This document shows, one piece after another, positions 3 through 45,500 of a stretch of DNA of 64,000 bases. The notes beneath the pieces were generated by a model. The model saw only the letters and a list, made by a program, of their open reading frames with translations. It ran no database searches and was not told the origin of the DNA. The translations under genes and the position numbers were made by a program. Source of the stretch: a virus (lineage: Duplodnaviria; Caudoviricetes); IMG/VR virus record IMGVR_UViG_3300043443_000351, positions 107-64,106 of that record; one strand, written 5' to 3'. How positions within the stretch are numbered: the stretch's first letter is position 1; every line of letters starts with the position of its first letter.

Positions 3-182
3 TTAATAGAGACAAATGATAGGATGGTATGGGAAACTCCTCAATATAGTATATTTGAAGTACCAGGCATGCATCCATCCGAATTAGGATATGTGAATAT
101 TTCAAAAGAACTTTATAGATATATTAAAGATTTTGATATTGTAAAATTCAATTCAAATAAAATTGATTTAAAATTTATATAA
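3..182 (+). CDS. 3' end of an SGNH-like protein (5'-truncated by window edge)
   Basis: Open frame from nt 3 to TAA at 180-182, overlapping the next ATG (TAATG). Translates ...GMHPSELGYVNISKELYRYIK...DLKFI, similar to the HPxxxGY block of the SGNH-like ORFs at 13430 and 43452. Not in the ORF track. Confidence 0.65.
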   Translation, partial: LIETNDRMVWETPQYSIFEVPGMHPSELGYVNISKELYRYIKDFDIVKFNSNKIDLKFI

Positions 183-751
183 TGAATTATTCAATAAATA
201 ATAATTTTTGTGATAGAAAAAAAGCCAATGAAATAATACAATTTTGTATTAAAAATGGTGAACAATTTTCTTATAATCCATCCGAAAGTTGGGATTGTAA
301 ACGTATATATGATGATGGGTTTAGAACTGAAATAATCAATATTTTAACAGAAAAATATACATCAAAACAGTTTGAATTATGGTTTGATTATAATACTTTT
401 AATTTGAAAAATTTTAATGTAAGTTTGACAGCATATTATAACGGAAGATATTTAAATTTACATAAGGATAAATCAAGCGAATTAACTACTGTTATAGTTT
501 TATCGGACGGATACGATGGTGGTGAATTTGCTTTATGCGAAGATGTGAAAAATGTACCAACATATTTTCAAACATTAGATGGTGTATCTAAATTTAACTT
601 AGGATTGGGAGATTTGATATCTTTTAATGGTTCTAAAACTTATCACGGTGTATTGCCTGTTAGTAATGGTATAAGATATGCATTAAATGTTTGGATGACT
701 GAAACAAATTATGATTACCCTAAACTTAAAATTAATAATTCATTGATATGA
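182..751 (+). CDS. 2OG-Fe(II) oxygenase
   Basis: HxD (LHKD), GGEF, distal His (YHGVLPV) and RYALNVW motifs. Confidence 0.9.
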   Translation: MNYSINNNFCDRKKANEIIQFCIKNGEQFSYNPSESWDCKRIYDDGFRTEIINILTEKYTSKQFELWFDYNTFNLKNFNVSLTAYYNGRYLNLHKDKSSELTTVIVLSDGYDGGEFALCEDVKNVPTYFQTLDGVSKFNLGLGDLISFNGSKTYHGVLPVSNGIRYALNVWMTETNYDYPKLKINNSLI

Positions 752-1269
752 GTATATTAATAATAGCATTACCAAGAACTGGTTCTACTGAATTGGGTAG
801 GAGATTATCAATCGAACATAATTTAAAATATGAATTTGAACCATTCAATCCATTAGCAAAATTACGATATAACGATACTTACAAAAATATGGTTGTAAAG
901 ACTATGGTATTTCATACTCCATTTTTTATAAAAGAAAATGAAAGATTAGAATGGTTAATCGATATATCAAAAGATTTTAAAGAAGTTATTTTATTATCTA
1001 GAAAGGATTTAGTAGCGTGTACCGAAAGTTGGTCGTTTTTATTACATGAAACCAAAAATGGGTTTAAATCTACCAAACCATATTTGTGGAAAAAAACTCC
1101 AAACTTCGATGAACAATTGTTTTTTATAAAAAAATGCGAAGAAGAGTTAATATATCTATCTGATAGGCTTGGTATAAAAATAACTTATTATGAAGATATA
1201 TACGATTTAAATGATGCCAATAGATTAAGAAAAGGAAATATTGATGTATCTAACAATAAGTTAATTTAG
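748..1269 (+). CDS. Sulfotransferase-like protein (Stf0-like)
   Basis: N-terminal PRTGST resembles the 5'-phosphosulfate-binding loop; LLSRKD resembles the 3'-phosphate-binding motif. Confidence 0.65.
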   Translation: MSILIIALPRTGSTELGRRLSIEHNLKYEFEPFNPLAKLRYNDTYKNMVVKTMVFHTPFFIKENERLEWLIDISKDFKEVILLSRKDLVACTESWSFLLHETKNGFKSTKPYLWKKTPNFDEQLFFIKKCEEELIYLSDRLGIKITYYEDIYDLNDANRLRKGNIDVSNNKLI

Positions 1270-1271
1270 TT

Positions 1272-2522
1272 ATGAAAATATACATACACCATTATTATCA
1301 AAACTTCATATATCACAAATTTTTACATAATACGAAAAATCGTACATCAACGATAAAAGATGGTATTGGTAGTATTTTTTGTAATTATAGGGGTATTGAT
1401 ATTGAGTTTATATTTAAGCAAGAAATTAGCTTTGAGGAAGATGGGTATCATATATTAGATTATTTTACAGCTTTTTTTCACGGAGTAGATGACCCTAAAA
1501 TTGGATATATTCATCCGGATAGGGAATATATGGAAAGAGAAACTCAACAAATTTTGAAAAAATTTATAGAGTTATTAAAGGGCTGTCCTAATAATCAAAA
1601 ATGGATTATAGGTTATTTTAGAACCGAAAAAATATTACAAACCAAAGATATAAATTATTTTGATGCAAATTGGTTAGAAATCGAATCTCTTATAAATCAA
1701 TTAAAAAATCATCATATAGTTACGGATAATATATTCTTAAACGATTTAGTTGGCGAACAATATCCAAATTTTTATTATGCATTAACTAATACAATATTTC
1801 AATGGAACGATAATTGGAATATTAGATGGTATTATGAATTTAAGCAAATATATGATAAATTAACATTTGATTATGATTTAATGTATAGTATTAGAAATCA
1901 TAAAGCGAATAGAGTTGCTATTATCAACGAATTGAATAAATTAAACAACAATAGACTGTATTTACAAAATACGGATGGATTACAAAACCCCGATTATTTT
2001 AAAAGAGCTCCAACTATATCACATATAAATACTAATTCAGTATATGGAGAAACTGATTTTGATGATATTACTTATATAGGAAATCATCAAGGCTATATGG
2101 ATGCGTTTTTTAGATTTTTACCAAAAGCTAAAATGCAAATATTGTGTGAAAGTTGGTCTTGGTCATCATCGGAGTTTACATCTCAATATGTTTCAGAAAA
2201 AACATTTGGATTTTTATTAGCGGGCATACCATTTATATCAACTCATAATTATCCATTACAAATGGTTGAAAGAATGTTAAAAATAGAACCTCATCCATTT
2301 TATAATGAATCCAAAAAATGTAAAGCTAATCCTAAATTGTTTGCCGAATTTGTAAATTCTTTTTTAAATAACTTTACTGAAAATCATAAATTATGTAAAG
2401 ATTGGTCGGATTTGGCACATACTAAATTATTATATAAAATTCAAAATGAAAATTCTTTATTAGATTTAATAATCGATGGTAAGTTAAAAAAAGAATTTAC
2501 AATTAAAAAATCTTTGCTATAA
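1272..2522 (+). CDS. Putative glycosyltransferase with GT10-like C-terminal motif
   Basis: ILCES...YVSEKTFGFLLAGIPFI resembles the GT10 motif (FxLxxEN...YxTEK...AxxxGxxPI). Same family as 57874. Confidence 0.45.
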   Translation: MKIYIHHYYQNFIYHKFLHNTKNRTSTIKDGIGSIFCNYRGIDIEFIFKQEISFEEDGYHILDYFTAFFHGVDDPKIGYIHPDREYMERETQQILKKFIELLKGCPNNQKWIIGYFRTEKILQTKDINYFDANWLEIESLINQLKNHHIVTDNIFLNDLVGEQYPNFYYALTNTIFQWNDNWNIRWYYEFKQIYDKLTFDYDLMYSIRNHKANRVAIINELNKLNNNRLYLQNTDGLQNPDYFKRAPTISHINTNSVYGETDFDDITYIGNHQGYMDAFFRFLPKAKMQILCESWSWSSSEFTSQYVSEKTFGFLLAGIPFISTHNYPLQMVERMLKIEPHPFYNESKKCKANPKLFAEFVNSFLNNFTENHKLCKDWSDLAHTKLLYKIQNENSLLDLIIDGKLKKEFTIKKSLL

Positions 2523-3220
2523 TGGAAGTGGTGTTTACATATCTACCGATAAGATTAAAAGAAATAACTGAAATTTATTTAAAATATTCAATTGCCAATT
2601 TAAATAATGTTGGTATAACTCCAATAATTTATTCTGATAAAGATTATTTTATTAATACCAAATTAGACTATGAATGGATTGAATTTAATGTGGATGAAAA
2701 GTATAAGAAGGATAGTTTATGGTCTTATCCTAAATTAAAAGTATTATCAAATATAAAATTTCCATTCATACATTTAGATAATGATTTAATCGTAAATGAT
2801 TTTATAAAATTTAAAACTATTATAAATGAATCAACATTAAATTTATGCTACAAACATCCATTATCAAAAATACAATCTAAATATTTTAAAGAAATATATA
2901 AAATTTATTCCGATAGACCATTGATGTTTGAAGAATTAAATAACACATCCATTGTGTGTTGTAAAGATTATTTAGTAATGAATAAAGCATATTTGGATGT
3001 ATTAGATATTGTAGATTCACACTATACATTTTTTTCAAAAAAGTATAATGGAATACCACCCATCACCTTAAATCAACAATATTTAAATCTATATTTTAGT
3101 AATATAAACTATCTATTTAATGAAAACCCATCATTTGAAAATATGAATATAAATGGCGTATGTCATTTAGCAGAAAAAAATATGGTTAGTAACTTTGTAC
3201 TAAATAAAAGTTTGATATGA
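2522..3220 (+). CDS. Putative GT-A fold glycosyltransferase-like protein
   Basis: YPKLKVL...PFIHLDNDL (DxD-type motif). Confidence 0.5.
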   Translation: MEVVFTYLPIRLKEITEIYLKYSIANLNNVGITPIIYSDKDYFINTKLDYEWIEFNVDEKYKKDSLWSYPKLKVLSNIKFPFIHLDNDLIVNDFIKFKTIINESTLNLCYKHPLSKIQSKYFKEIYKIYSDRPLMFEELNNTSIVCCKDYLVMNKAYLDVLDIVDSHYTFFSKKYNGIPPITLNQQYLNLYFSNINYLFNENPSFENMNINGVCHLAEKNMVSNFVLNKSLI

Positions 3221-3879
3221 AAAATACGTTATGGGCATTTGGAGATTCTATGACATTTGGACACGGATGTAATATCGATTGTCCTTCAGATACTAGAATC
3301 GAATATTTGAAATACAAAAAAGATACAGATGATATTTGGACTAATCATTTGGGTAGATTATTAAATTATAATGTGCGTAATATGGGTGTAAATGGAGCAT
3401 CAAACGATTCCATTTTAGATAGTATTATAGATAATTTTGATTATATAAATGAAAATGATGTGGTTATAATTAATATGACATTATATGGAAGAATAGATGT
3501 TCCAATTGGAAACTCTTTTCATAATGTATTATCATCATACGAAGGAGCTAAAACTTTATTGAAAACATCTGATAATGTAGAGGATAACGAAAAGATAGAA
3601 ACTATTATAAATTTTCAATATTATTTCTCCAATCATATTCTTTATAAAAATAGACATAAGAAACGATTTGAATTTATTAAGGATAGATTGATAAAAGAAA
3701 AGAAAATACGATTTATTTATATCTGGTCGTTAGAAGAAGATGATGGTATATATGCATCTTTTGAAACAATCGTTAAAGCAACAAATGGTACTATAAAAGA
3801 TACACATTTTTCATTTAATGGTCATTTTAATTTTGCTCATTTTTTATATGGGCTAATGGATACTAAAAAAATACTATAA
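3217..3879 (+). CDS. SGNH/GDSL-like hydrolase or acyltransferase
   Basis: AFGDSMT block I, NMGVNGASN block II and DTHFS block V. Confidence 0.75.
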   Translation: MKNTLWAFGDSMTFGHGCNIDCPSDTRIEYLKYKKDTDDIWTNHLGRLLNYNVRNMGVNGASNDSILDSIIDNFDYINENDVVIINMTLYGRIDVPIGNSFHNVLSSYEGAKTLLKTSDNVEDNEKIETIINFQYYFSNHILYKNRHKKRFEFIKDRLIKEKKIRFIYIWSLEEDDGIYASFETIVKATNGTIKDTHFSFNGHFNFAHFLYGLMDTKKIL

Positions 3880-4580
3880 TGTCTAATACATTGAGTAAAA
3901 AAGAAAAAAATGCTATAAAAATATTAGGAAATGATTTGGCAAACATTATTATTAATAAAATAAAAGTAGATTTTTTAAATTTAAATTACATAACAGAAAA
4001 ACGATTTAATAATATAATCTATTCTATTTTTAATTATATTGAATCGAATCCATCATTAAGTTATTCGGATATCGATAGTATGGATTTAAAAATAATAGAA
4101 AATGTTTGGGATTCGTATTTGCAAAAATATATTAGTAATTATACATCTACTAATTTTGTAGAAACAAATAAGATAATAGATGATTATAGAATAAATGGCA
4201 TTGGATTGTATTGGGTTGATTTAGAGAAATTATTCTGTATAGATTCTATGATTAGAATGAATGATTGTGGTAGAGTTAATTATGGGCATACAACATTAGA
4301 GCTTAGAGAGCAATTGGATGATTCAAACGAATCGCATATGATTATTGTTTACGAAATAAAAACAGGCAATATACGACAAGTTAAAGGAAAATCTAGTCAG
4401 AAGCCAGATAGTAAATATTGGAAATATTTTTATAAATTTTTAATTAATACTTCTTATAAAATAAATGAATATGTTCCGACTTACAAATCGGAATCAGATT
4501 TAAATATTTTAGATTTTCCAATCAATATTCAAAAAGAAATATATTTGAAACATCCAACATTAAATAAAAATTTGATTTAA
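3879..4580 (+). CDS. Hypothetical protein with PcfJ-like C-terminal region
   Basis: RMNDCG...LELRE...IRQVKGKSSQKP resembles the PcfJ-like M.HC / Q.KG..N..P pattern, but is degenerate. Confidence 0.4.
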   Translation: MSNTLSKKEKNAIKILGNDLANIIINKIKVDFLNLNYITEKRFNNIIYSIFNYIESNPSLSYSDIDSMDLKIIENVWDSYLQKYISNYTSTNFVETNKIIDDYRINGIGLYWVDLEKLFCIDSMIRMNDCGRVNYGHTTLELREQLDDSNESHMIIVYEIKTGNIRQVKGKSSQKPDSKYWKYFYKFLINTSYKINEYVPTYKSESDLNILDFPINIQKEIYLKHPTLNKNLI

Positions 4581-4954
4581 TGAAATATATAATAGCTCCT
4601 ACTAATATAAAGGGTAATTCCGTATTTGCTAAAAAAATAATATTTAAAGATGAACTAATAGGCGAATATTATAGAGATTTCCCAAATACAAAATATACTA
4701 AAAATATTTTTGATTACTTTGATAGAGATTTGGGTAGATATTGTAATCACTCTTTTAGTCCTAATACTTATGTAAAAGAATCTTTAAATAAAGATGGATA
4801 TGATTTATATGCTTTATTTGAGATTAAAATAGGAGAAGAAATATTGGTTGATTATGTATTAATGGAGCAGCTAGTAAATGCACCTTTTAATACTTTTTAT
4901 AAACCAATTTTTAAAGAAGAAAAACAAACCTTTATTATTAAAAATTTGATATAG
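4580..4954 (+). CDS. SET-domain methyltransferase
   Basis: GNSVFA, RYCNHSFSPN and GEEILVDY match SET signature motifs. Confidence 0.85.
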   Translation: MKYIIAPTNIKGNSVFAKKIIFKDELIGEYYRDFPNTKYTKNIFDYFDRDLGRYCNHSFSPNTYVKESLNKDGYDLYALFEIKIGEEILVDYVLMEQLVNAPFNTFYKPIFKEEKQTFIIKNLI

Positions 4955-5563
4955 ATGAACGGAACAGAAAATCTCATAATTACAGAAGATTATATTTTTA
5001 ATCCTGATAATAATCATAATGTGATGCATAAATGCGAAACTAAAATAATGGAACGGCAAGCACAAATAAGTACACAAAATGGCGGCGATATTTTAGAATT
5101 AGGATTTGGAATGCATATTTCCGCTGATTTTATTCAGAGTAATCCAAATGTTACATCTCATACAATAATAGAAATTCATCCGCAACAATATCAGAGAGCA
5201 TTAGAATGGGCTAAAGATAAAAAAAATGTTGAAATAATATTGGGAGATTGGGTAGATTTATTACCATTAGTAAATAGAAAATTTGATGGCATATTATTTG
5301 ATACCGATACGGATGGGAATTTGCCGTTTTTTATGGATATGGTTAAACCAAATTGTAAAGAAGGTACGGCTCTTTCATTTTATGCGTATTATAGGCACGA
5401 TGCTAGACTGAATTCCGAAATTATACATTTTACAAATGAAGAAGTTGCGGCTTGGCCCGATTCGTGGAAGAAACACAAATTATTTCAAAATAATCAATAT
5501 GTTATATATCATACCAAATTTAATGGTGTTGATTTTTATGCAAATAATACTAAATTAATTTAA
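4955..5563 (+). CDS. Class I SAM methyltransferase, GAMT/RMT2-like
   Basis: VMHKCETKIM, GGDILELGFGM, HTIIEIHP and FDGILFDT follow the GAMT/Rmt2 pattern. Confidence 0.8.
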   Translation: MNGTENLIITEDYIFNPDNNHNVMHKCETKIMERQAQISTQNGGDILELGFGMHISADFIQSNPNVTSHTIIEIHPQQYQRALEWAKDKKNVEIILGDWVDLLPLVNRKFDGILFDTDTDGNLPFFMDMVKPNCKEGTALSFYAYYRHDARLNSEIIHFTNEEVAAWPDSWKKHKLFQNNQYVIYHTKFNGVDFYANNTKLI

Positions 5564-5595
5564 TTTGGTTTTTTAATAAATTTTTCGTATATTGG
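5564..5595 (+). promoter_or_regulatory. Bacteroidota sigma70-type promoter
   Basis: TTTG at 5564-5567, 20 nt spacer, TATATTGG at 5588-5595 (one mismatch to TAnnTTTG). Confidence 0.6.
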
Positions 5596-5600
5596 TTACT

Positions 5601-5924
5601 ATGATTATAGTACCCGAAACTCCAATAACAGATGTTAGTTTTACTAAATGGAATGCTTGCATTAAAATAGAAATGAAAGATGAATCTTTGGATGAAGTTT
5701 TTCATTACTACATAATTCCACTAATAGATGTAACGCAAGAAGAATTAGAAAACGACATAGAAACCATACCATCACTTTGGTCGTCAGAATCTACCGAATT
5801 TGAATCCGAAGAAGGAATCACACTTTACACAATGCGATTGTTTGATGAAGATTTACCAGAATTGACTACAGAAGAAGAAGTTGAAATACTTTATAAAATT
5901 TTAACAAAAAAAGACCTGTATTAA
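5601..5924 (+). CDS. Acidic hypothetical protein
   Basis: ORF track starts at TTG 5592, which lies inside the promoter, so ATG 5601 is preferred. Glu/Asp-rich, no recognised motif. Confidence 0.6.
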   Translation: MIIVPETPITDVSFTKWNACIKIEMKDESLDEVFHYYIIPLIDVTQEELENDIETIPSLWSSESTEFESEEGITLYTMRLFDEDLPELTTEEEVEILYKILTKKDLY

Positions 5925-5956
5925 TTTGGAAATTTGAAAAAATTTTTGTATATTTG
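5925..5956 (+). promoter_or_regulatory. Bacteroidota sigma70-type promoter
   Basis: TTTG at 5925-5928, 20 nt spacer, TATATTTG at 5949-5956 (perfect match). Confidence 0.8.
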
Positions 5957-6036
5957 AGGTATCTTTTTATTATTACTATAAAGCAGACAGCACAGAAGCA
6001 CTAAAAGATTAAAATAAAACTTAAAAAATAAAAGAA

Positions 6037-6684
6037 ATGAAACAAAAGACAGAAAAGGAACTGAAAGACAATTACGAGAGGTTTATTGCTATCATTAAAA
6101 AATATTTTAAAGGTGATAGATTGGAGAAACTTCTTTTTATGTATTCAGAAGAAGAATTAGGTGTAAATCTTGCAATATCACCAGCAAGTGGTAACATTGG
6201 TTATCACAATTGTTATACAGGTGGATATATAGACCACATTTTTAATGTTTGTAAAAATTCTCTTAAAGTAAAAGAATTATTTGTAAGTTTAGGAGGTAAA
6301 GTAGATTTTACAGATGAAGAATTGATATTTTGTGCATTGCATCACGATTTAGGTAAATTAGGTTCTAAAGGTAAACCATACTATACACCAAACCCATCCG
6401 ATTGGCATATTAAAAATCAGGGTAAAGTATTTACGCCAAATCCGGAGTTATCCCATATGACTCATACCGATAGAACTATGTTTTTATTACAACATTATAA
6501 TATTCAGGTTTCCGAAGCAGAATATTTTGGTATGAAATTAACAGATGGTTTATACGATGAAGATAATGCAAAATATTTAAAAGTTTTTGATATCAGTAAA
6601 AGAATGAAATATAAAATTCCGTATATTATGCATTGGGCTGACCATATGAGTACTGTAATCGAGTCACAAGATAATGATTTATAA
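6037..6684 (+). CDS. HD-domain phosphohydrolase
   Basis: GGYIDHIFNV, ALHHDLGK and HWADH motifs. Confidence 0.85.
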   Translation: MKQKTEKELKDNYERFIAIIKKYFKGDRLEKLLFMYSEEELGVNLAISPASGNIGYHNCYTGGYIDHIFNVCKNSLKVKELFVSLGGKVDFTDEELIFCALHHDLGKLGSKGKPYYTPNPSDWHIKNQGKVFTPNPELSHMTHTDRTMFLLQHYNIQVSEAEYFGMKLTDGLYDEDNAKYLKVFDISKRMKYKIPYIMHWADHMSTVIESQDNDL

Positions 6685-6764: not shown

Positions 6765-7151
6765 ATGTACACAGCAAACATTAAAAACTTATTAGATTTA
6801 TTCGAAACGGAATTACCGGCAAATTGGACAACCACAACTACCACTAAACCATTAGCTTTGGATTATGATATAAAGCAATTGGAAGATGGTAAACAACAAT
6901 TAGTATTGAGCGTTGTAGGACACGATGCTAAAAATATTAAATTAGATGTTACCGAAGATAAGGTAACTATTAAAGCAAAAAAAGAAGAAGGAAGTTATTC
7001 ATTAGTTGCTGATATCGATGCTACATTTAAGGTGGGTAAAGATTACGATGGAACTAAAACTGAAGCTAAATTCTCTAATGGGTTACTTATTTTAACAATC
7101 GATAAGAAAGAGGAGAGAAAGAGTAAATCTATCTCAATTAAAGTTGGTTAA
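6765..7151 (+). CDS. Small heat-shock protein (Hsp20/alpha-crystallin)
   Basis: LSVVGHDAKNIKLDV...TEAKFSNGLLILTIDK...KSISIK matches the Hsp20 pattern. Confidence 0.85.
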   Translation: MYTANIKNLLDLFETELPANWTTTTTTKPLALDYDIKQLEDGKQQLVLSVVGHDAKNIKLDVTEDKVTIKAKKEEGSYSLVADIDATFKVGKDYDGTKTEAKFSNGLLILTIDKKEERKSKSISIKVG

Positions 7152-8535: not shown

Positions 8536-9426
8536 ATGAATTTAGGCTACGCATGTATTAATATGACTATGGGTAAAAAAATTACCACAAATCGTACTAT
8601 GGTTAAACGCACCTTCAATGAGAAGGGTTTGGATTATGTATCGGAACTCGCATTATTGAATGCAAAAGATATTATTAAAATATTAGAATGGAATAAGCAA
8701 AATAAAATTAACTTCTTTCGCTTATCATCTGCTCTTATTCCTTGGGGCGATAATATTGATATTACGCAGTTAAAAGATTACAAAGAAATTAAAAGCGAAT
8801 TAAAGAAAGCAGGTGATTTCGCAAAACATCACAATATTCGTATAACATCCCATCCAGGTCCATTTAATGTGTTAGTTTCACCATCGGAATCGGTAGTAGA
8901 AAAAACTATTGCAGATTTAGAATTACATGGTAAAGTATTTGATATGATGGGTTTATCTTTAACTCCTTACAATAAGATTAATATTCATTGTAATGGTGTT
9001 TACGGAGATAAAAAATCAGCAATGGATAGATTTATCAAAAACTTCCAAAGACTCTCTAAATCGGTTCAAAAACGACTTACAATTGAGAATGATGATAAGA
9101 GTTCTATGTATTCAGTTAAAGATTTGATGTATATTCACGAAAAGATTGGTATTCCAATTGTATTCGATTATCATCATCATACATTTTGTACAGGCGATTT
9201 ATCAGAAGAACAAGCTCTTAAATTAGCAGCTACAACTTGGCCCGAAGGAATTGTACCAGTTGTACATTATTCCGAATCAAAAGCATTGCATGAAAATAAC
9301 TCAAAAGAAAAACCACAAGCTCATTCATTGTATATTAATTCCCTCCCTAATACATACGAATTGGATGTAGACATTATGGTTGAGGCAAAAGCAAAAGAAT
9401 TAGCGATATTACCATTTATTAAATAA
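8536..9426 (+). CDS. uvsE: UV damage endonuclease (UVDE)
   Basis: LGYACIN, SHPGPF, LTIENDD, VFDYHHH and DIMVEAKAKELA motifs. Confidence 0.93.
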   Translation: MNLGYACINMTMGKKITTNRTMVKRTFNEKGLDYVSELALLNAKDIIKILEWNKQNKINFFRLSSALIPWGDNIDITQLKDYKEIKSELKKAGDFAKHHNIRITSHPGPFNVLVSPSESVVEKTIADLELHGKVFDMMGLSLTPYNKINIHCNGVYGDKKSAMDRFIKNFQRLSKSVQKRLTIENDDKSSMYSVKDLMYIHEKIGIPIVFDYHHHTFCTGDLSEEQALKLAATTWPEGIVPVVHYSESKALHENNSKEKPQAHSLYINSLPNTYELDVDIMVEAKAKELAILPFIK

Positions 9427-11723: not shown

Positions 11724-13433
11724 ATGGTCTTATTAGGTATTTCCGCATTCTATCATGATTCTGCGGTATGTTTATTCGAAGATGGTAAAGTAATAGCAGC
11801 AATAGAAGAAGAGAAATTATCTGGCATAAAGCACGATAACTCCTTTCCAATTAAAGCAATTAAATGGGTTTTACAATATTCTAAAAAAAGTATATCGGAT
11901 ATTGATACTATTTGTTGGTATGAAGACCCTGCTATAAAATACGATAGAGTTAAAAATACATTAGGAAAACATTGGTGGAAAAATCGTAAGACTTGGAAAA
12001 AGTTTAAAGAGGAATTCGATTCTACTGAAGGTGATTTAACTATGTATTTGGCTAAAAGATTAAATTTTACCGGAAACATTGAATATGTAAAACATCATAA
12101 TTCTCATTTAGCATTTTCATATTATACATCACCATTTCACGATGCAATTGGTATTTCAATAGATGGTGTTGGTGAATGGGAAACCGCATTGGCTGTTAGA
12201 TGTAAAGATAATACATTTGAAGAAATTAATTCTATGAAGTTTCCAAACTCATTAGGATTGGTGTATTCTACTATAACTGCTTATTTAGGGTTTAAGCCAA
12301 ATGGTGGAGAATATAAAGTAATGGGATTAGCACCATATGGTGACCCATCTAGATTCAAACATACATTTGATAAAATGTTTAGATTTGATAGTAATGGTGT
12401 AATCGAAATTAATCAGAAATATTTTACTTGGCAATATTCTAATACCGATATGTACACATACGATTTGGTAAAATTAATTGGAATAGAACCAAGAGAACCA
12501 GAATCTGCTATTGAACAAGAGCATATGGATTTAGCAGCAGCTTTACAAAAATGGTATGAAAGTTGTTTTTATTTTTTTGTAAATAATTGTATGCAAAATG
12601 CAGATACTGCTAACTTAGTATTAGGAGGAGGTTCTGCATATAATGGTACTGCTAATGGGAAGATACAAAGACATACATCCGTAAAAGAATTATGGATTCC
12701 ATTTGCTCCATCTGATGCCGGTTCTGCAATTGGTGCATGCTTATATTATTGGCATAATATATTAGGAAATCAAAAAGTAATTGATGGAGATAATCAATCT
12801 CCATATTTGGGTCAAAGCTGGGATACAAAGGAATTAACTAATATTTTATCAAAAGAAAAAGCTGAAAACAAAGAACTAAATGTTAGAATCTATAATTCAA
12901 AAGATAGATTATTAAATAAGGTTGCAAAATTAGTTAATGAAGGTAATATAGTTGGTTGGTTTCAAGGTAGAACTGAATTTGGTGCAAGAGCATTGGGTAA
13001 TCGTTCCATATTAGCTAATCCACATTTATCAGATGTTAGGGATAGAATTAATAAGGTTGTCAAAAAGAGAGAAATGTTTAGACCATTTGCTCCATCCGTA
13101 ACATTTGAGGATTATGAAAAATATTTTTCTTCAGAAGGAGAAGTTCCATATATGAATCAAGTTGTTAAAGTTACAAACTATAAATCAATCCCATCCGTAA
13201 CTCACGTGGATGGTTCAGCAAGAATTCAAACTTTGAAAAGAGAAATGAATCCGCTTTATTATGATTTATTAAAAGCATTTGAAAAGATAAGCGGTACACC
13301 AATACTTTTAAACACATCTTTTAATTTAAGAGGACACACAATGACTAACGACCCTAAGAAAGCAATTTGGACATTCCTTAATTGTGATATGGATTATTTA
13401 GTAATGGGTAACTTTATAATAAGTAAGAAATGA
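11724..13433 (+). CDS. O-carbamoyltransferase (NodU/CmcH/TobZ family)
   Basis: LGISAFYHDSA, EEEK, HHNSH, DGVGE, EYKVMGLAPYG, GARALGNRS, RPFAP and LLNTSFN motifs. Confidence 0.95.
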   Translation: MVLLGISAFYHDSAVCLFEDGKVIAAIEEEKLSGIKHDNSFPIKAIKWVLQYSKKSISDIDTICWYEDPAIKYDRVKNTLGKHWWKNRKTWKKFKEEFDSTEGDLTMYLAKRLNFTGNIEYVKHHNSHLAFSYYTSPFHDAIGISIDGVGEWETALAVRCKDNTFEEINSMKFPNSLGLVYSTITAYLGFKPNGGEYKVMGLAPYGDPSRFKHTFDKMFRFDSNGVIEINQKYFTWQYSNTDMYTYDLVKLIGIEPREPESAIEQEHMDLAAALQKWYESCFYFFVNNCMQNADTANLVLGGGSAYNGTANGKIQRHTSVKELWIPFAPSDAGSAIGACLYYWHNILGNQKVIDGDNQSPYLGQSWDTKELTNILSKEKAENKELNVRIYNSKDRLLNKVAKLVNEGNIVGWFQGRTEFGARALGNRSILANPHLSDVRDRINKVVKKREMFRPFAPSVTFEDYEKYFSSEGEVPYMNQVVKVTNYKSIPSVTHVDGSARIQTLKREMNPLYYDLLKAFEKISGTPILLNTSFNLRGHTMTNDPKKAIWTFLNCDMDYLVMGNFIISKK

Positions 13434-14203
13434 AATTATACGCATACGGAGATAGTTGGACAGAAGGACAAGGTTGTAGAATAGATGATGAATCCAAATT
13501 AAAAGATAGAATGATTCTAAGAGATTTTAGAAACAAATACTCTTGGCCAATCAAATTAGCTAACAAATTAGGATGTGACCACGAAAATAATGGATGGAGT
13601 GGTAGAGCAAATAACCTTATCTTTAATGATGTTATAAGCGATTTAAGAAACGGAAAGATTCACAAAGGAGATTTAGTTGTTATAATGTGGAGTTCATCTT
13701 TAAGAGATTATGTACATTTTTTACCAAAAGGCGAATGGATTAGTTGGTCTATAAAAGAACTTACATTGCTACCGCATAAGTTTTTTGAATCATATAAATT
13801 TGGCGATGATAAATACAATGATTTTTTAGAAAGATATAAAAAGTTTTTCTTACAAAATATGTTTAATCAAAATTATTATAATATTATAAATCAAAACTAC
13901 ATTGTATTTTTGCAAAAAATGTTAGAAGATTATGAAGTAAACTATTTGATGTTAGATGCATTTGATATGATGGTGCAAGATTTAAATAAAGAAGATGATA
14001 TAACTCATTTGATAAATAAAAAGAACTATTGGGGATTTACCAAACAAACTATTAGAGATTATATAGTAAAAATATCAGATGAAACTGCTTGGGAATACCC
14101 TCAACCTTTTGAAGAAATACCATCAAAACATCCAAATGAAAAAGGATACAATCTAATAAGTGAAGAAATTTATAATTATATAGTAAAGAATAACATAATT
14201 TAA
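13430..14203 (+). CDS. SGNH-like hydrolase or acyltransferase
   Basis: YGDSWT, GRAN and KHPNEKGY motifs. Confidence 0.75.
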   Translation: MKLYAYGDSWTEGQGCRIDDESKLKDRMILRDFRNKYSWPIKLANKLGCDHENNGWSGRANNLIFNDVISDLRNGKIHKGDLVVIMWSSSLRDYVHFLPKGEWISWSIKELTLLPHKFFESYKFGDDKYNDFLERYKKFFLQNMFNQNYYNIINQNYIVFLQKMLEDYEVNYLMLDAFDMMVQDLNKEDDITHLINKKNYWGFTKQTIRDYIVKISDETAWEYPQPFEEIPSKHPNEKGYNLISEEIYNYIVKNNII

Positions 14204-43451: not shown

Positions 43452-44909
43452 ATGAATAGATTAGTTACATTTGGAGATAGTTGGACTGCTGGACACGGAG
43501 TTGAAACCGATATACAATATAAAGAAATTATATCTCCAAATTTGTTTATCGATTATCTTAGATTGATGAATGGTTGGCCAAGATATTTATCAAATAGATA
43601 CGATGTACCATTTGTAAATTTAGCATTTTGTAATAAATCAAATAATGAAATTTACGAAGATATAGTTAAATGGAAATCTTTGCTAACAAAGGATGATTTA
43701 ATTATTGTTATGTTATCATATCCATATAGAAATTATGGTAACCCAATTAACGATGTTGGAAATATTATTAATGAATTAAATGGTTATAATTATTTTATTA
43801 TAAATTCCTTTTTTCCAACCTTTTCAAATTTAGAATATTCTGAATATTCTCATTTAAATCTTACACGGTTTATAAATATAGATGGATGTGTTAGTGATAC
43901 TTTAGTAAAATGGGAAGCCGAAAATAAACAAAGTTGTTGGGAATATGGATTTAGAAAAGTTGATAAAGAAAACACATTTTTAGGTGGAGATTATCATCCC
44001 AATACTATTGGCTACAAATTAATTGCCGATGATATTTACACTAAAATAAAAAATTATAATGCAAATAGAATAATAACTATACCAATTGCAGCACCTGTTG
44101 AATTATTTAGATTTCAAACTTCTTTATTTCAATTTTTTCAAATAAAACTTTATGGCGATAATGCTTTTAATAATTCAATAATTGTAGTAGTCGATAGAAA
44201 TAAACATAATACTACATTTGTGAGTATTCCTTGGAGTATTGATTTGAAATCAAAGCTATTACCAGGAATTCATAAAGAATTGGATATATCAAAAACTCAT
44301 TCTCATTATAATTCTATAAATGTATTTTATCCATTAAAATATATGATAGATAATATGTCCGATGATACAATTTTGTGTATAATAGATTGCGATGTAGTTC
44401 CATTAAAAATTTATGATGGAATATTACCAAATGATGATGAAGCAATTACTTGCGATGTATATGAAAACTGGCATATGCACATTAAAGACCCAACCAAAAA
44501 TAATTTTTATAAAATTGAGAAATATTTAGAACATACGGACTATTCATATATGGATGGTGGATTTGTGCCAATTATTATAAATGTAAAAACATTAAAAAAA
44601 ATACTGAAAGATATTATAGAAATTTCAGAAAAGCTTATAGATGGATTAGACCCAAATGATAAATTTGGATGGTGGGGCGCTATGGCTGGATTTCAAATTG
44701 CATGTCATAATCATAAAATAAAATGTATATCACAAAATAACACATATGTACCAAATATAAATGAATTAGATGAAGAACAACATTATTTTTGTCACTATTC
44801 GTGTGACCCATTATTTGCAAAAAAAGATTTTACAAATTGGGATGTATCTAAATTTAAATCAAATAAATTTTACAACAATGTTAAGACGTGGTTACGAACT
44901 TATCAATAA
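43452..44909 (+). CDS. Fusion: SGNH-like domain plus hydroxyproline O-arabinosyltransferase (HPAT/GT95)-like glycosyltransferase
   Basis: N-terminal half has FGDSWT...YHPNTIGY. C-terminal half has FQTSL, YNSIN, IIDCD (44385), VPIII, DKFGWWGAMAGFQIA (44664) and HYSCD (44793), in the order of plant HPAT motifs as recalled. Confidence 0.6.
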   Translation: MNRLVTFGDSWTAGHGVETDIQYKEIISPNLFIDYLRLMNGWPRYLSNRYDVPFVNLAFCNKSNNEIYEDIVKWKSLLTKDDLIIVMLSYPYRNYGNPINDVGNIINELNGYNYFIINSFFPTFSNLEYSEYSHLNLTRFINIDGCVSDTLVKWEAENKQSCWEYGFRKVDKENTFLGGDYHPNTIGYKLIADDIYTKIKNYNANRIITIPIAAPVELFRFQTSLFQFFQIKLYGDNAFNNSIIVVVDRNKHNTTFVSIPWSIDLKSKLLPGIHKELDISKTHSHYNSINVFYPLKYMIDNMSDDTILCIIDCDVVPLKIYDGILPNDDEAITCDVYENWHMHIKDPTKNNFYKIEKYLEHTDYSYMDGGFVPIIINVKTLKKILKDIIEISEKLIDGLDPNDKFGWWGAMAGFQIACHNHKIKCISQNNTYVPNINELDEEQHYFCHYSCDPLFAKKDFTNWDVSKFKSNKFYNNVKTWLRTYQ

Positions 44910-44945: not shown

Positions 44946-45500
44946 ATGGTTACAATTATAGATAATGTATTGACACTAAATGAGTGTGAGCATTTAATAA
45001 AATTAGGTTCTAAAAACTTCGCACCAGCTGGAACATTGGGTAAGCAAATAGAGGGATATAGAACCGCAGATGGTAGTTGGTTAAGAGAACCCGATGAAAT
45101 CGTTGAAAAAGTAAAATCTATGGTTTCCATAATGACCGGAAACCCTATTGAAAACCAAGAAGAAGTTCATATTGTTAAATATGAAATAGGTGGAGAATTC
45201 AAAACTCATACCGATTACTTTCATCAAAATGAAGAATATTATTCGGAACATATTAAATTAGGTGGTCAGCGTATAATGACTTGCTTATTTTATCTGAATG
45301 ATAATTTTGAAGGAGGAGAAACCGAATTTCCATTAAAAAAATTAAAAATAACTCCACGAATTGGTAGATTACTATTATGGAGTAATGTTACGCCAGATGA
45401 TAATGTAGATTATGAAAGTTTACATGCGGGATTGCCTGTTATTAGTGGAACTAAATATATTGCAGTTGTGTGGATTAGAGAATCAAAATTTAAAAAATAA
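44946..45500 (+). CDS. Prolyl 4-hydroxylase (2OG-Fe(II), plant/algal/bacterial P4H-like)
   Basis: YRT, HTDYF (HxD), GGQRIMTCLFYL, GGETEFP and SLHAGLPVISGTKYIAVVWIRE motifs. Confidence 0.88.
   Translation: MVTIIDNVLTLNECEHLIKLGSKNFAPAGTLGKQIEGYRTADGSWLREPDEIVEKVKSMVSIMTGNPIENQEEVHIVKYEIGGEFKTHTDYFHQNEEYYSEHIKLGGQRIMTCLFYLNDNFEGGETEFPLKKLKITPRIGRLLLWSNVTPDDNVDYESLHAGLPVISGTKYIAVVWIRESKFKK

Follow-up and report, generated by a model that had tools for sequence, protein, structure and literature searches.

Why should nine consecutive viral genes, several of them for enzymes of different families, all end in the same kind of short peptide? The question is raised by a 64,000-nucleotide stretch of DNA (Duplodnaviria; Caudoviricetes; IMG/VR record IMGVR_UViG_3300043443_000351, positions 107 to 64,106), hereafter the window, which represents nearly all of one 64,106-bp viral contig. 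A preliminary description had noted the C-termini DLKFI, NNSLI, NNKLI, KKSLL, NKSLI, TKKIL, NKNLI, IKNLI and NTKLI in the nine open reading frames (ORFs) at 3-5563, together with KNNII at the end of the gene at 13430, and all of these endings are exact in the translations. Each of the nine ORFs ends in polar or basic residues followed by [SKNT]-hydrophobic-[IL], and the codons and stop codons that encode this C-terminal tag vary, as had been claimed. The tag is selected at the amino-acid level, and only small single-domain tailoring enzymes that belong to a single phage gene module carry it. The ten genes are:

3-182, + strand: 3′ third of an SGNH-family gene (family 0), a 5′-truncated ORF; tail IDLKFI; 59% identity by blastp to residues 178-271 of the product of L029/L030 6096-6911
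182-751, + strand: 2-oxoglutarate (2OG)-Fe(II) oxygenase (PF13640, E = 8e-8), aligned with its untagged paralogue 44946-45500 and 25 relatives; tail KINNSLI
748-1269, + strand: 173-aa protein with an N-terminal P-loop-like PRTGSS motif; tail SNNKLI; 37/37 family members tagged
1272-2522, + strand: 416-aa protein with no family assigned, searched with Pfam and metagenomic homologues; tail IKKSLL
2522-3220, + strand: 232-aa protein with a weak DUF6734 match; tail LNKSLI; 30/30 family members tagged
3217-3879, + strand: SGNH/GDSL-like hydrolase, a weak match (PF13472, E = 0.0024, under the cut-off) that clusters with SGNH family 0 (55/59 tagged); tail DTKKIL
3879-4580, + strand: 233-aa protein with no family assigned; tail LNKNLI
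4580-4954, + strand: SET-domain protein, lysine methyltransferase-like (PF00856, E = 4.6e-10); tail IIKNLI
4955-5563, + strand: class I methyltransferase resembling guanidinoacetate N-methyltransferase (GAMT; profile against PDB, E = 2e-12); tail NNTKLI
13430-14203, + strand: SGNH/DUF6071 gene, a possible outlying member; ends KNNII

The fold labels first given to these genes stand in part. The 2OG oxygenase and the SET protein are recognized by Pfam and the GAMT-like enzyme by its PDB profile, and the SGNH assignment holds weakly; the sulfotransferase and glycosyltransferase labels were not confirmed. For 748-1269 there is no Pfam match, and neither alignment nor a profile search of PDB sequences returned a sulfotransferase. 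The same two labels were not confirmed for 1272-2522, nor, by Pfam and the profile search of PDB sequences, for 2522-3220. The tagged run ends with 4955-5563, which is followed by a 37-nt gap and then by untagged genes. This gap had been described as holding a promoter in place of a coupled gene; the gap is real, but the promoter is not borne out by a sigma-70 scan of 5400-6100, which found 5 promoter-like sites against a mean of 4.4 in shuffles.

Within the window, the dipeptide LI is C-terminal in 6/9 of the tagged proteins and makes up 0.98% of the internal dipeptides of the same nine proteins (binomial p = 7e-11). The wider pattern [SKNT][LIVMF][IL], picked after the fact, is C-terminal in 9/9 against 2.2% internally (p = 1e-15). 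Among the 53 other window ORFs, the strict pattern is matched by one (13430), where 0.68 would be expected, and since this is near expectation its KNNII end may be due to chance. The remaining TAATG-coupled genes of the window lack the tag, as reported earlier.

The ending recurs throughout the relatives of the window, which total ~90 viral loci. With the 416-aa protein (1272-2522) as query, 35 loci were found at 60-75% identity, and in each of them up to ~15 consecutive genes share the ending (fewer on short contigs). ORF clustering yields 18 sequence families with a tag on nearly every member, among them SGNH proteins (55/59), two groups of 2OG oxygenases (55/56 and 22/23) and others at 37/37, 35/37, 30/30 and 25/25. 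Trp halogenases, FkbM-, CmcI- and GAMT-like methyltransferases, SET proteins and a 95-aa Zn-ribbon protein are also tagged, and the idea that the tag marks a modification toolkit holds across these families. Of the families that flank the clusters, HSP20 and UvdE among them, most have no tagged member, and a few end in two hydrophobic residues. Counted as unique proteins over the window-related loci, 267/301 are tagged inside clusters and 30/217 outside (Fisher p = 5e-71), and 19 of the 34 untagged proteins inside clusters are one and the same protein, the hub described below. Metagenomic homologues of the 416-aa protein number 366, and all 120 of those listed end in the tag. Enrichment across a whole genome, proposed at the outset as a check, is seen in a complete 287-kb relative (G002), where the operon at 172,790-184,160 has 13/15 genes tagged against 0.19 expected; a smaller excess outside the operon is weighed below.

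A logo of 257 non-redundant genes defines the tag as Lys-rich from -7 to -4 (K 0.37 at -7, K/N/E at -5, K 0.59 at -4), with S (0.33), T (0.22), K (0.21) or N (0.12) at -3, L (0.67) or I (0.26) at -2, and I (0.71) or L (0.24) at -1. Selection has kept this five-residue tail on at least 18 sequence families and a few hundred non-redundant genes in ~90 viral loci.

The window taken by itself prompted the suspicion of a nucleotide motif or of translational coupling, as TTG provides 5/7 of the Leu codons at -2 against 19% in gene bodies. This excess vanishes in the 257 relatives, where TTA, TTG and CTA at -2 are used at 65, 17 and 10% against 65, 14 and 10% in gene bodies. Ser at -3 is encoded by TCA, TCT and AGT in about equal use, with TCN and AGY alike, and one orthologue family spells KKSLI with five different codon strings. 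The tag is also independent of the type of gene junction: it is present at 94/95 ATGA overlaps, at 79/79 TAATG overlaps, at 35/39 gaps of >40 nt and likewise at short gaps, and operon-final genes are tagged as well. Codon use and the junction test rule out the nucleotide motif, and conservation as nucleotides, which had been named as an outcome that would count against a peptide signal, is not what is found: the codons of the tag are those of the gene bodies.

The tag is likewise separable from the folds that carry it. In 2OG oxygenase paralogues of 20-28% identity, the core ends in R-Y-x-L-N-x-W and is followed by a linker of ~5 to 14 residues with indels and then by the tag; in 182-751, the extension beyond the last core strand is 12 residues long. 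The untagged window paralogue 44946-45500 ends 2 residues past the 2OG core, and an untagged Zn-ribbon paralogue lacks the entire ~23-residue tail. Variable linkers, untagged paralogues and the tail-less Zn-ribbon protein rule out the tag as part of a common fold, in agreement with the preliminary description. The oxygenase/halogenase clusters of cyanophage Syn9 and pelagiphage HTVC008M have no tag on their proteins; together with the codon and junction tests, these untagged homologues favor the protein-level signal first proposed over AT-rich stop-codon context. Taken together, the codon, junction, linker and paralogue results describe a motif that is peptide-level, appended and terminal.

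Not every gene near a cluster carries the tag. Small single-domain tailoring enzymes are tagged; the large multidomain glycosyltransferases beside the cluster are untagged, as are the neighboring sugar-nucleotide genes, which include UDP-glucose dehydrogenase, epimerase, carbamoyltransferase, APS kinase and PglD-like acetyltransferase. Two untagged paralogues of tagged families, the 2OG oxygenase at 44946-45500 and an SGNH-glycosyltransferase fusion at 43452-44909, adjoin the tail-fibre genes of the window and seem to be part of another modification system.

The sole constant untagged gene of the clusters encodes the hub, a protein of ~495 aa (up to ~912 aa in the variants with two Hint domains) that is single-copy in 5/5 larger relatives and lies within or beside the cluster; the tagged families are arranged around it. 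Examples, all outside the window, are L029:4444-5922 (= G002 179126-180604) and L013:4404-5891, and a small tagged Zn-ribbon protein often immediately adjoins the gene. The first ORF of the window (3-182) is the SGNH gene that directly follows the hub in relatives (59% identity), which places the hub just upstream of the start of the contig. A profile search yields 363 hub cluster representatives at 50% identity. Neither the hub nor the 416-aa family is matched in any of 50,697 deposited phage records, and a search of GTDB species genomes with two peptide patterns did not find the hub.

The hub has no match in Pfam or, by profile, among PDB sequences, and its architecture was derived from a predicted model. 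An initial model from 17 sequences was poor (predicted local distance difference test (pLDDT) score 53); an AlphaFold model from a 78-sequence alignment reached a pLDDT of 89.6. In structure comparisons with this model, residues 1-280 resemble ATP-grasp ligases of peptide carboxylates, the closest being YgiC (Z = 9.8) and glutathionylspermidine synthetase (GspS; 9.3), followed by glutathione synthetases (8-9) and TTLL/RimK/LysX-ArgX (~6); the YgiC and GspS matches cover ~200 residues with a root-mean-square deviation (rmsd) of >4. The family-invariant residues D9, E21, N23, R112, D122 and R227 all lie within this domain. Residues 285-467 form a Hint domain in the model, with hedgehog, intein and bacterial intein-like (BIL) domains at Z ~15; the match to hedgehog 1at0 (Z = 15.5, rmsd 2.4 over 143 residues) stops at model residue 466.

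As in Hint and intein domains, that of the hub closes with a C-terminal His-Asn: H465 (99%) and N466 (100%) are nearly invariant, and H465, N466 and C468 are all conserved at 99-100%. At Hint position 1, where a splicing nucleophile would be expected, positions 286-290 are variable with no conserved C, S or T, which would fit C-terminal cleavage only. The 25-60 residues past the His-Asn form a tail that is disordered and hypervariable and contains 6, 8 or 10 Cys. This Cys-rich tail is the likely substrate of the module: we infer that Asn cyclization frees it as a peptide, which the tagged enzymes then tailor.

Hub homologues of 25-37% identity in other lineages are again flanked by genes with the same tag consensus. 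Among them are double-Hint variants of ~910 aa, and in one lineage of 40 loci the operon begins with the hub. In the ~910-aa variants (L064:6124-8838, L065:10001-12739 and L066:10001-12736), a second Hint-like end (...NHNFYANGILVHNK) is present and tagged genes still lie downstream; the segment that separates the two Hint domains may be freed at both of its ends. Upstream of one further homologue, L063:2016-7190 is a tandem array of ~14 small paralogous genes (98-145 aa) that all end in KL[ST]KV. A concerted change of tag between hub lineages could have pointed to the reader of the tag. The two large hub lineages share the tag consensus apart from a modest S-to-T shift at -3 (p = 7e-5), with the -1 residue unchanged, and the comparison does not single out a reader.

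What, then, does the tag do? We consider it a docking label that brings interchangeable tailoring enzymes to one common reader, most probably the hub, and assign this reading a probability of about 0.5. The tail would act as a short linear motif with a free carboxyl end, carried on a flexible extension of variable length after the catalytic fold, through which hydroxylases, halogenase, methyltransferases, SGNH enzymes and the Zn-ribbon protein could all bind the same partner. The hub, with a predicted ATP-grasp domain of the GspS/YgiC type, a Hint domain that closes with His-Asn, and a Cys-rich, hypervariable peptide as the likely substrate, is the best candidate for both substrate and reader. 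Its structural relatives bind peptide C-termini, which makes the ATP-grasp domain a concrete hypothesis for the binding pocket. Such an arrangement would invert the logic of RiPPs (ribosomally synthesized peptides with post-translational modifications), with the docking domain on the substrate protein and the peptide on each enzyme. A more specific proposal, which we put forward tentatively, is that the self-cleaving precursor has a docking or ligase site and that any enzyme gaining K-x-[ST]-L-I-COOH is recruited to it; in its stronger form, the ATP-grasp pocket would bind or activate the terminal carboxylate.

Several observations weigh against docking at the hub. The hub is a candidate reader that we infer from co-location, single copy and elimination, and the window itself has no hub gene, its contig being truncated. 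Identity among hubs falls to ~25% with hardly any change in the tag, a pattern also compatible with a conserved host reader, and the hub homologue of L063 has few tagged neighbors. Outside the operon of the complete 287-kb relative, 13/336 genes match the pattern where 4.3 would be expected (p = 5e-4), so that the tag, or a general C-terminal bias, may extend past the module.

Readers encoded by the phage itself were sought among known peptide-binding domains, as the preliminary description had suggested, with a negative outcome. PDZ (PF13180, PF17820 and PF00595), TPR (PF13181 and PF13432) and S41 protease (PF03572) models have no match in two near-complete relatives, one of 316 kb (95% complete) and one of 287 kb (100% complete), and a phage-encoded reader of these three types was rejected on this basis. 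A host PDZ protein would be compatible with these negatives. ClpP is encoded in the 316-kb relative (G001 111931-112452, E = 1e-55) and was not found in the complete 287-kb relative.

The ClpP gene bears on the best placed of the alternatives, that the tail is a degron or timer read by a host or phage C-terminus-specific protease such as ClpXP, which would limit enzyme lifetime. Non-polar C-termini destabilize proteins in Escherichia coli, and the Lys-rich tail with its hydrophobic end resembles the C-motif-2 class of ClpX degrons (e.g. MuA ...RRKKAI). We regard this account as unlikely, in view of the relative that lacks ClpP and the lack of an S41/Tsp-like gene in either near-complete relative; a degron also leaves unexplained why the tag is limited to the small enzymes of one operon while the adjacent sugar-nucleotide enzymes, large glycosyltransferases and hub are untagged. 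Localization through lipids or a host factor, by which the basic and hydrophobic end would direct the enzymes to a particular site, such as the membrane or the virion, appears improbable. The polybasic tail with two terminal aliphatic residues, and a module that adjoins glycan-building genes and lies near structural genes, are what it would predict, but two aliphatic residues make a weak membrane anchor, no amphipathic pattern is apparent by eye in the last ten residues, and the extreme C-terminal position and the polar -3 requirement suit a peptide-binding pocket better.

It is more doubtful still that the tag is a ligase substrate, the hub ATP-grasp domain activating the α-carboxylate of the tail so that the enzymes would be extended or conjugated at their C-termini (cf. 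RimK, TTL and LysX) and not merely docked. The carboxylate ligases among the structural neighbors of the hub N-domain, the invariant residues of that domain and the need for the tag to be terminal are consistent with this modification, which is proposed from fold similarity; a small molecule or the Cys-rich peptide could just as well be the substrate of the predicted ligase. A signal outside the protein, whether a nucleotide motif at gene ends (coupling or a recombination site), AT-rich composition or chance, has a negligible probability, since internal-frequency nulls are exceeded by at least 10 orders of magnitude and flanking genes of equal composition are untagged, and the codon and junction results above exclude a nucleotide artefact.

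The window is a piece of a large uncultured myovirus. Its baseplate protein has 38-41% identity to those of Microcystis phage Mel-JY01, Flavobacterium phage immuto and an uncultured 484-kb phage, its relatives are contigs of up to 316 kb, and its DNA occurs in freshwater, aquatic and, partly, marine metagenome runs; these matches, sizes and sources together identify it as a fragment of such a genome. The sequence is AT-rich, with a GC content of 24% in the first 4 kb and 28-33% over the remainder, and almost every gene lies on the + strand. Megablast with the first 12 kb returned no match, and an expression look-up listed no RNA dataset as containing the stretch. Shortly downstream of the tagged cluster are an HSP20 small heat-shock protein (6765-7151), which ends in an I-x-V motif of its own (SIKVG), and a UvdE UV endonuclease (8536-9426); most relatives have these two genes in the same place.

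In G002, the whole tagged operon (172790-184160; L047) is inverted with respect to its flanks, with HSP20 convergent and fam12 divergent. The operon of the window has the same orientation as its neighbors, unlike that of G002, a difference that fits a mobile or hypervariable module. A possible outlying tagged member, 16 kb off the G002 operon, is a radical-SAM-like protein that ends in RTKLI (L046:3772-4941, G002 155772-156941). The pattern is also matched, perhaps by chance, by an NT5C nucleotidase (LNKLL) and by an AAA kinase (SIKLI).

Overall, the interpretation in the preliminary description, a C-terminal address that recruits a modification toolkit or sets protein half-life, is partly supported. 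Should the docking code prove true, it would explain how enzymes are freely swapped in hypervariable phage islands; the tail would be a simple handle that predicts the pathway membership of genes, and a minimal tag for engineered enzyme recruitment. The clusters also point to an uncharacterized class of phage-made, heavily modified Cys-rich peptides.

How does the tag compare with known systems? Short C-terminal address peptides on unrelated enzymes are known from eukaryotic sorting and from the cytosolic iron-sulfur protein assembly (CIA) machinery, as in type 1 peroxisomal targeting signals (PTS1), KDEL and the CIA peptide; to our knowledge, they have not been described as the organizing principle of a viral or bacterial biosynthetic operon, and neither the tag nor the hub architecture turned up in a full-text literature search. 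PTS1 is [SAC]-[KRH]-[LM]-COOH, a peroxisomal signal read by the TPR domain of Pex5, and the CIA targeting-complex tripeptide is [LIM]-[DES]-[WF]-COO- (PMC10245660). The phage tag resembles both as a very short, extreme C-terminal peptide on unrelated folds with, as proposed here, one common reader. It differs in its viral setting, and in that its -2 residue, basic in PTS1 and acidic in the CIA peptide, is aliphatic (L or I in 93%, almost never basic and never acidic), that W or F occurs at -1 in ~1% or less, that it is limited to one operon, and that no TPR gene is found in two relatives.

Class I PDZ ligands have the form X-[S/T]-X-hydrophobic-COOH. About 55% of the tags have S (33%) or T (22%) at -3 with I or L at -1 (95%), and a free carboxylate is apparently required; the difference is that one third of the tags have K (21%) or N (12%) at -3 and that the two near-complete relatives encode no PDZ domain. 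The bacterial clamp-binding motif is QL[SD]LF. Like it and the ClpX degrons, whose peptides are read by ring-shaped or hexameric machines, the tag combines basic or polar residues with an aliphatic C-terminus. Where the clamp motif has Q and L, the tag has K/N and K (K/N/E at -5, K at -4 in 59%), its last residue is I or L, not F, and there is no evident link to DNA or proteolysis.

The RiPP systems, in which a leader peptide is recognized by RiPP recognition element (RRE) domains on the tailoring enzymes, share with the module, as proposed here, the sending of many enzymes to one ribosomal peptide through a common element, and an enzyme content that is hypervariable and plug-and-play. In the proposed arrangement the enzymes carry the peptide, and the domain belongs to the precursor, which is a ~470-aa ATP-grasp/Hint protein and not a short leader. 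If the inverted RiPP reading is true, a plug-and-play code for combinatorial peptide chemistry is evolving across hundreds of uncultured giant phages. The nearest gene neighborhood is that of cyanophage Syn9-type operons, where many unrelated 2OG oxygenases and Trp halogenases are predicted to modify peptides (Iyer et al. 2010, PMC2938197). The likeness lies in a phage operon that combines 2OG oxygenases with Trp halogenases; the proteins of Syn9 and HTVC008M are untagged, whereas the module described here adds the tag, the hub and the 416-aa family, the latter two without homologues in deposited phage genomes.

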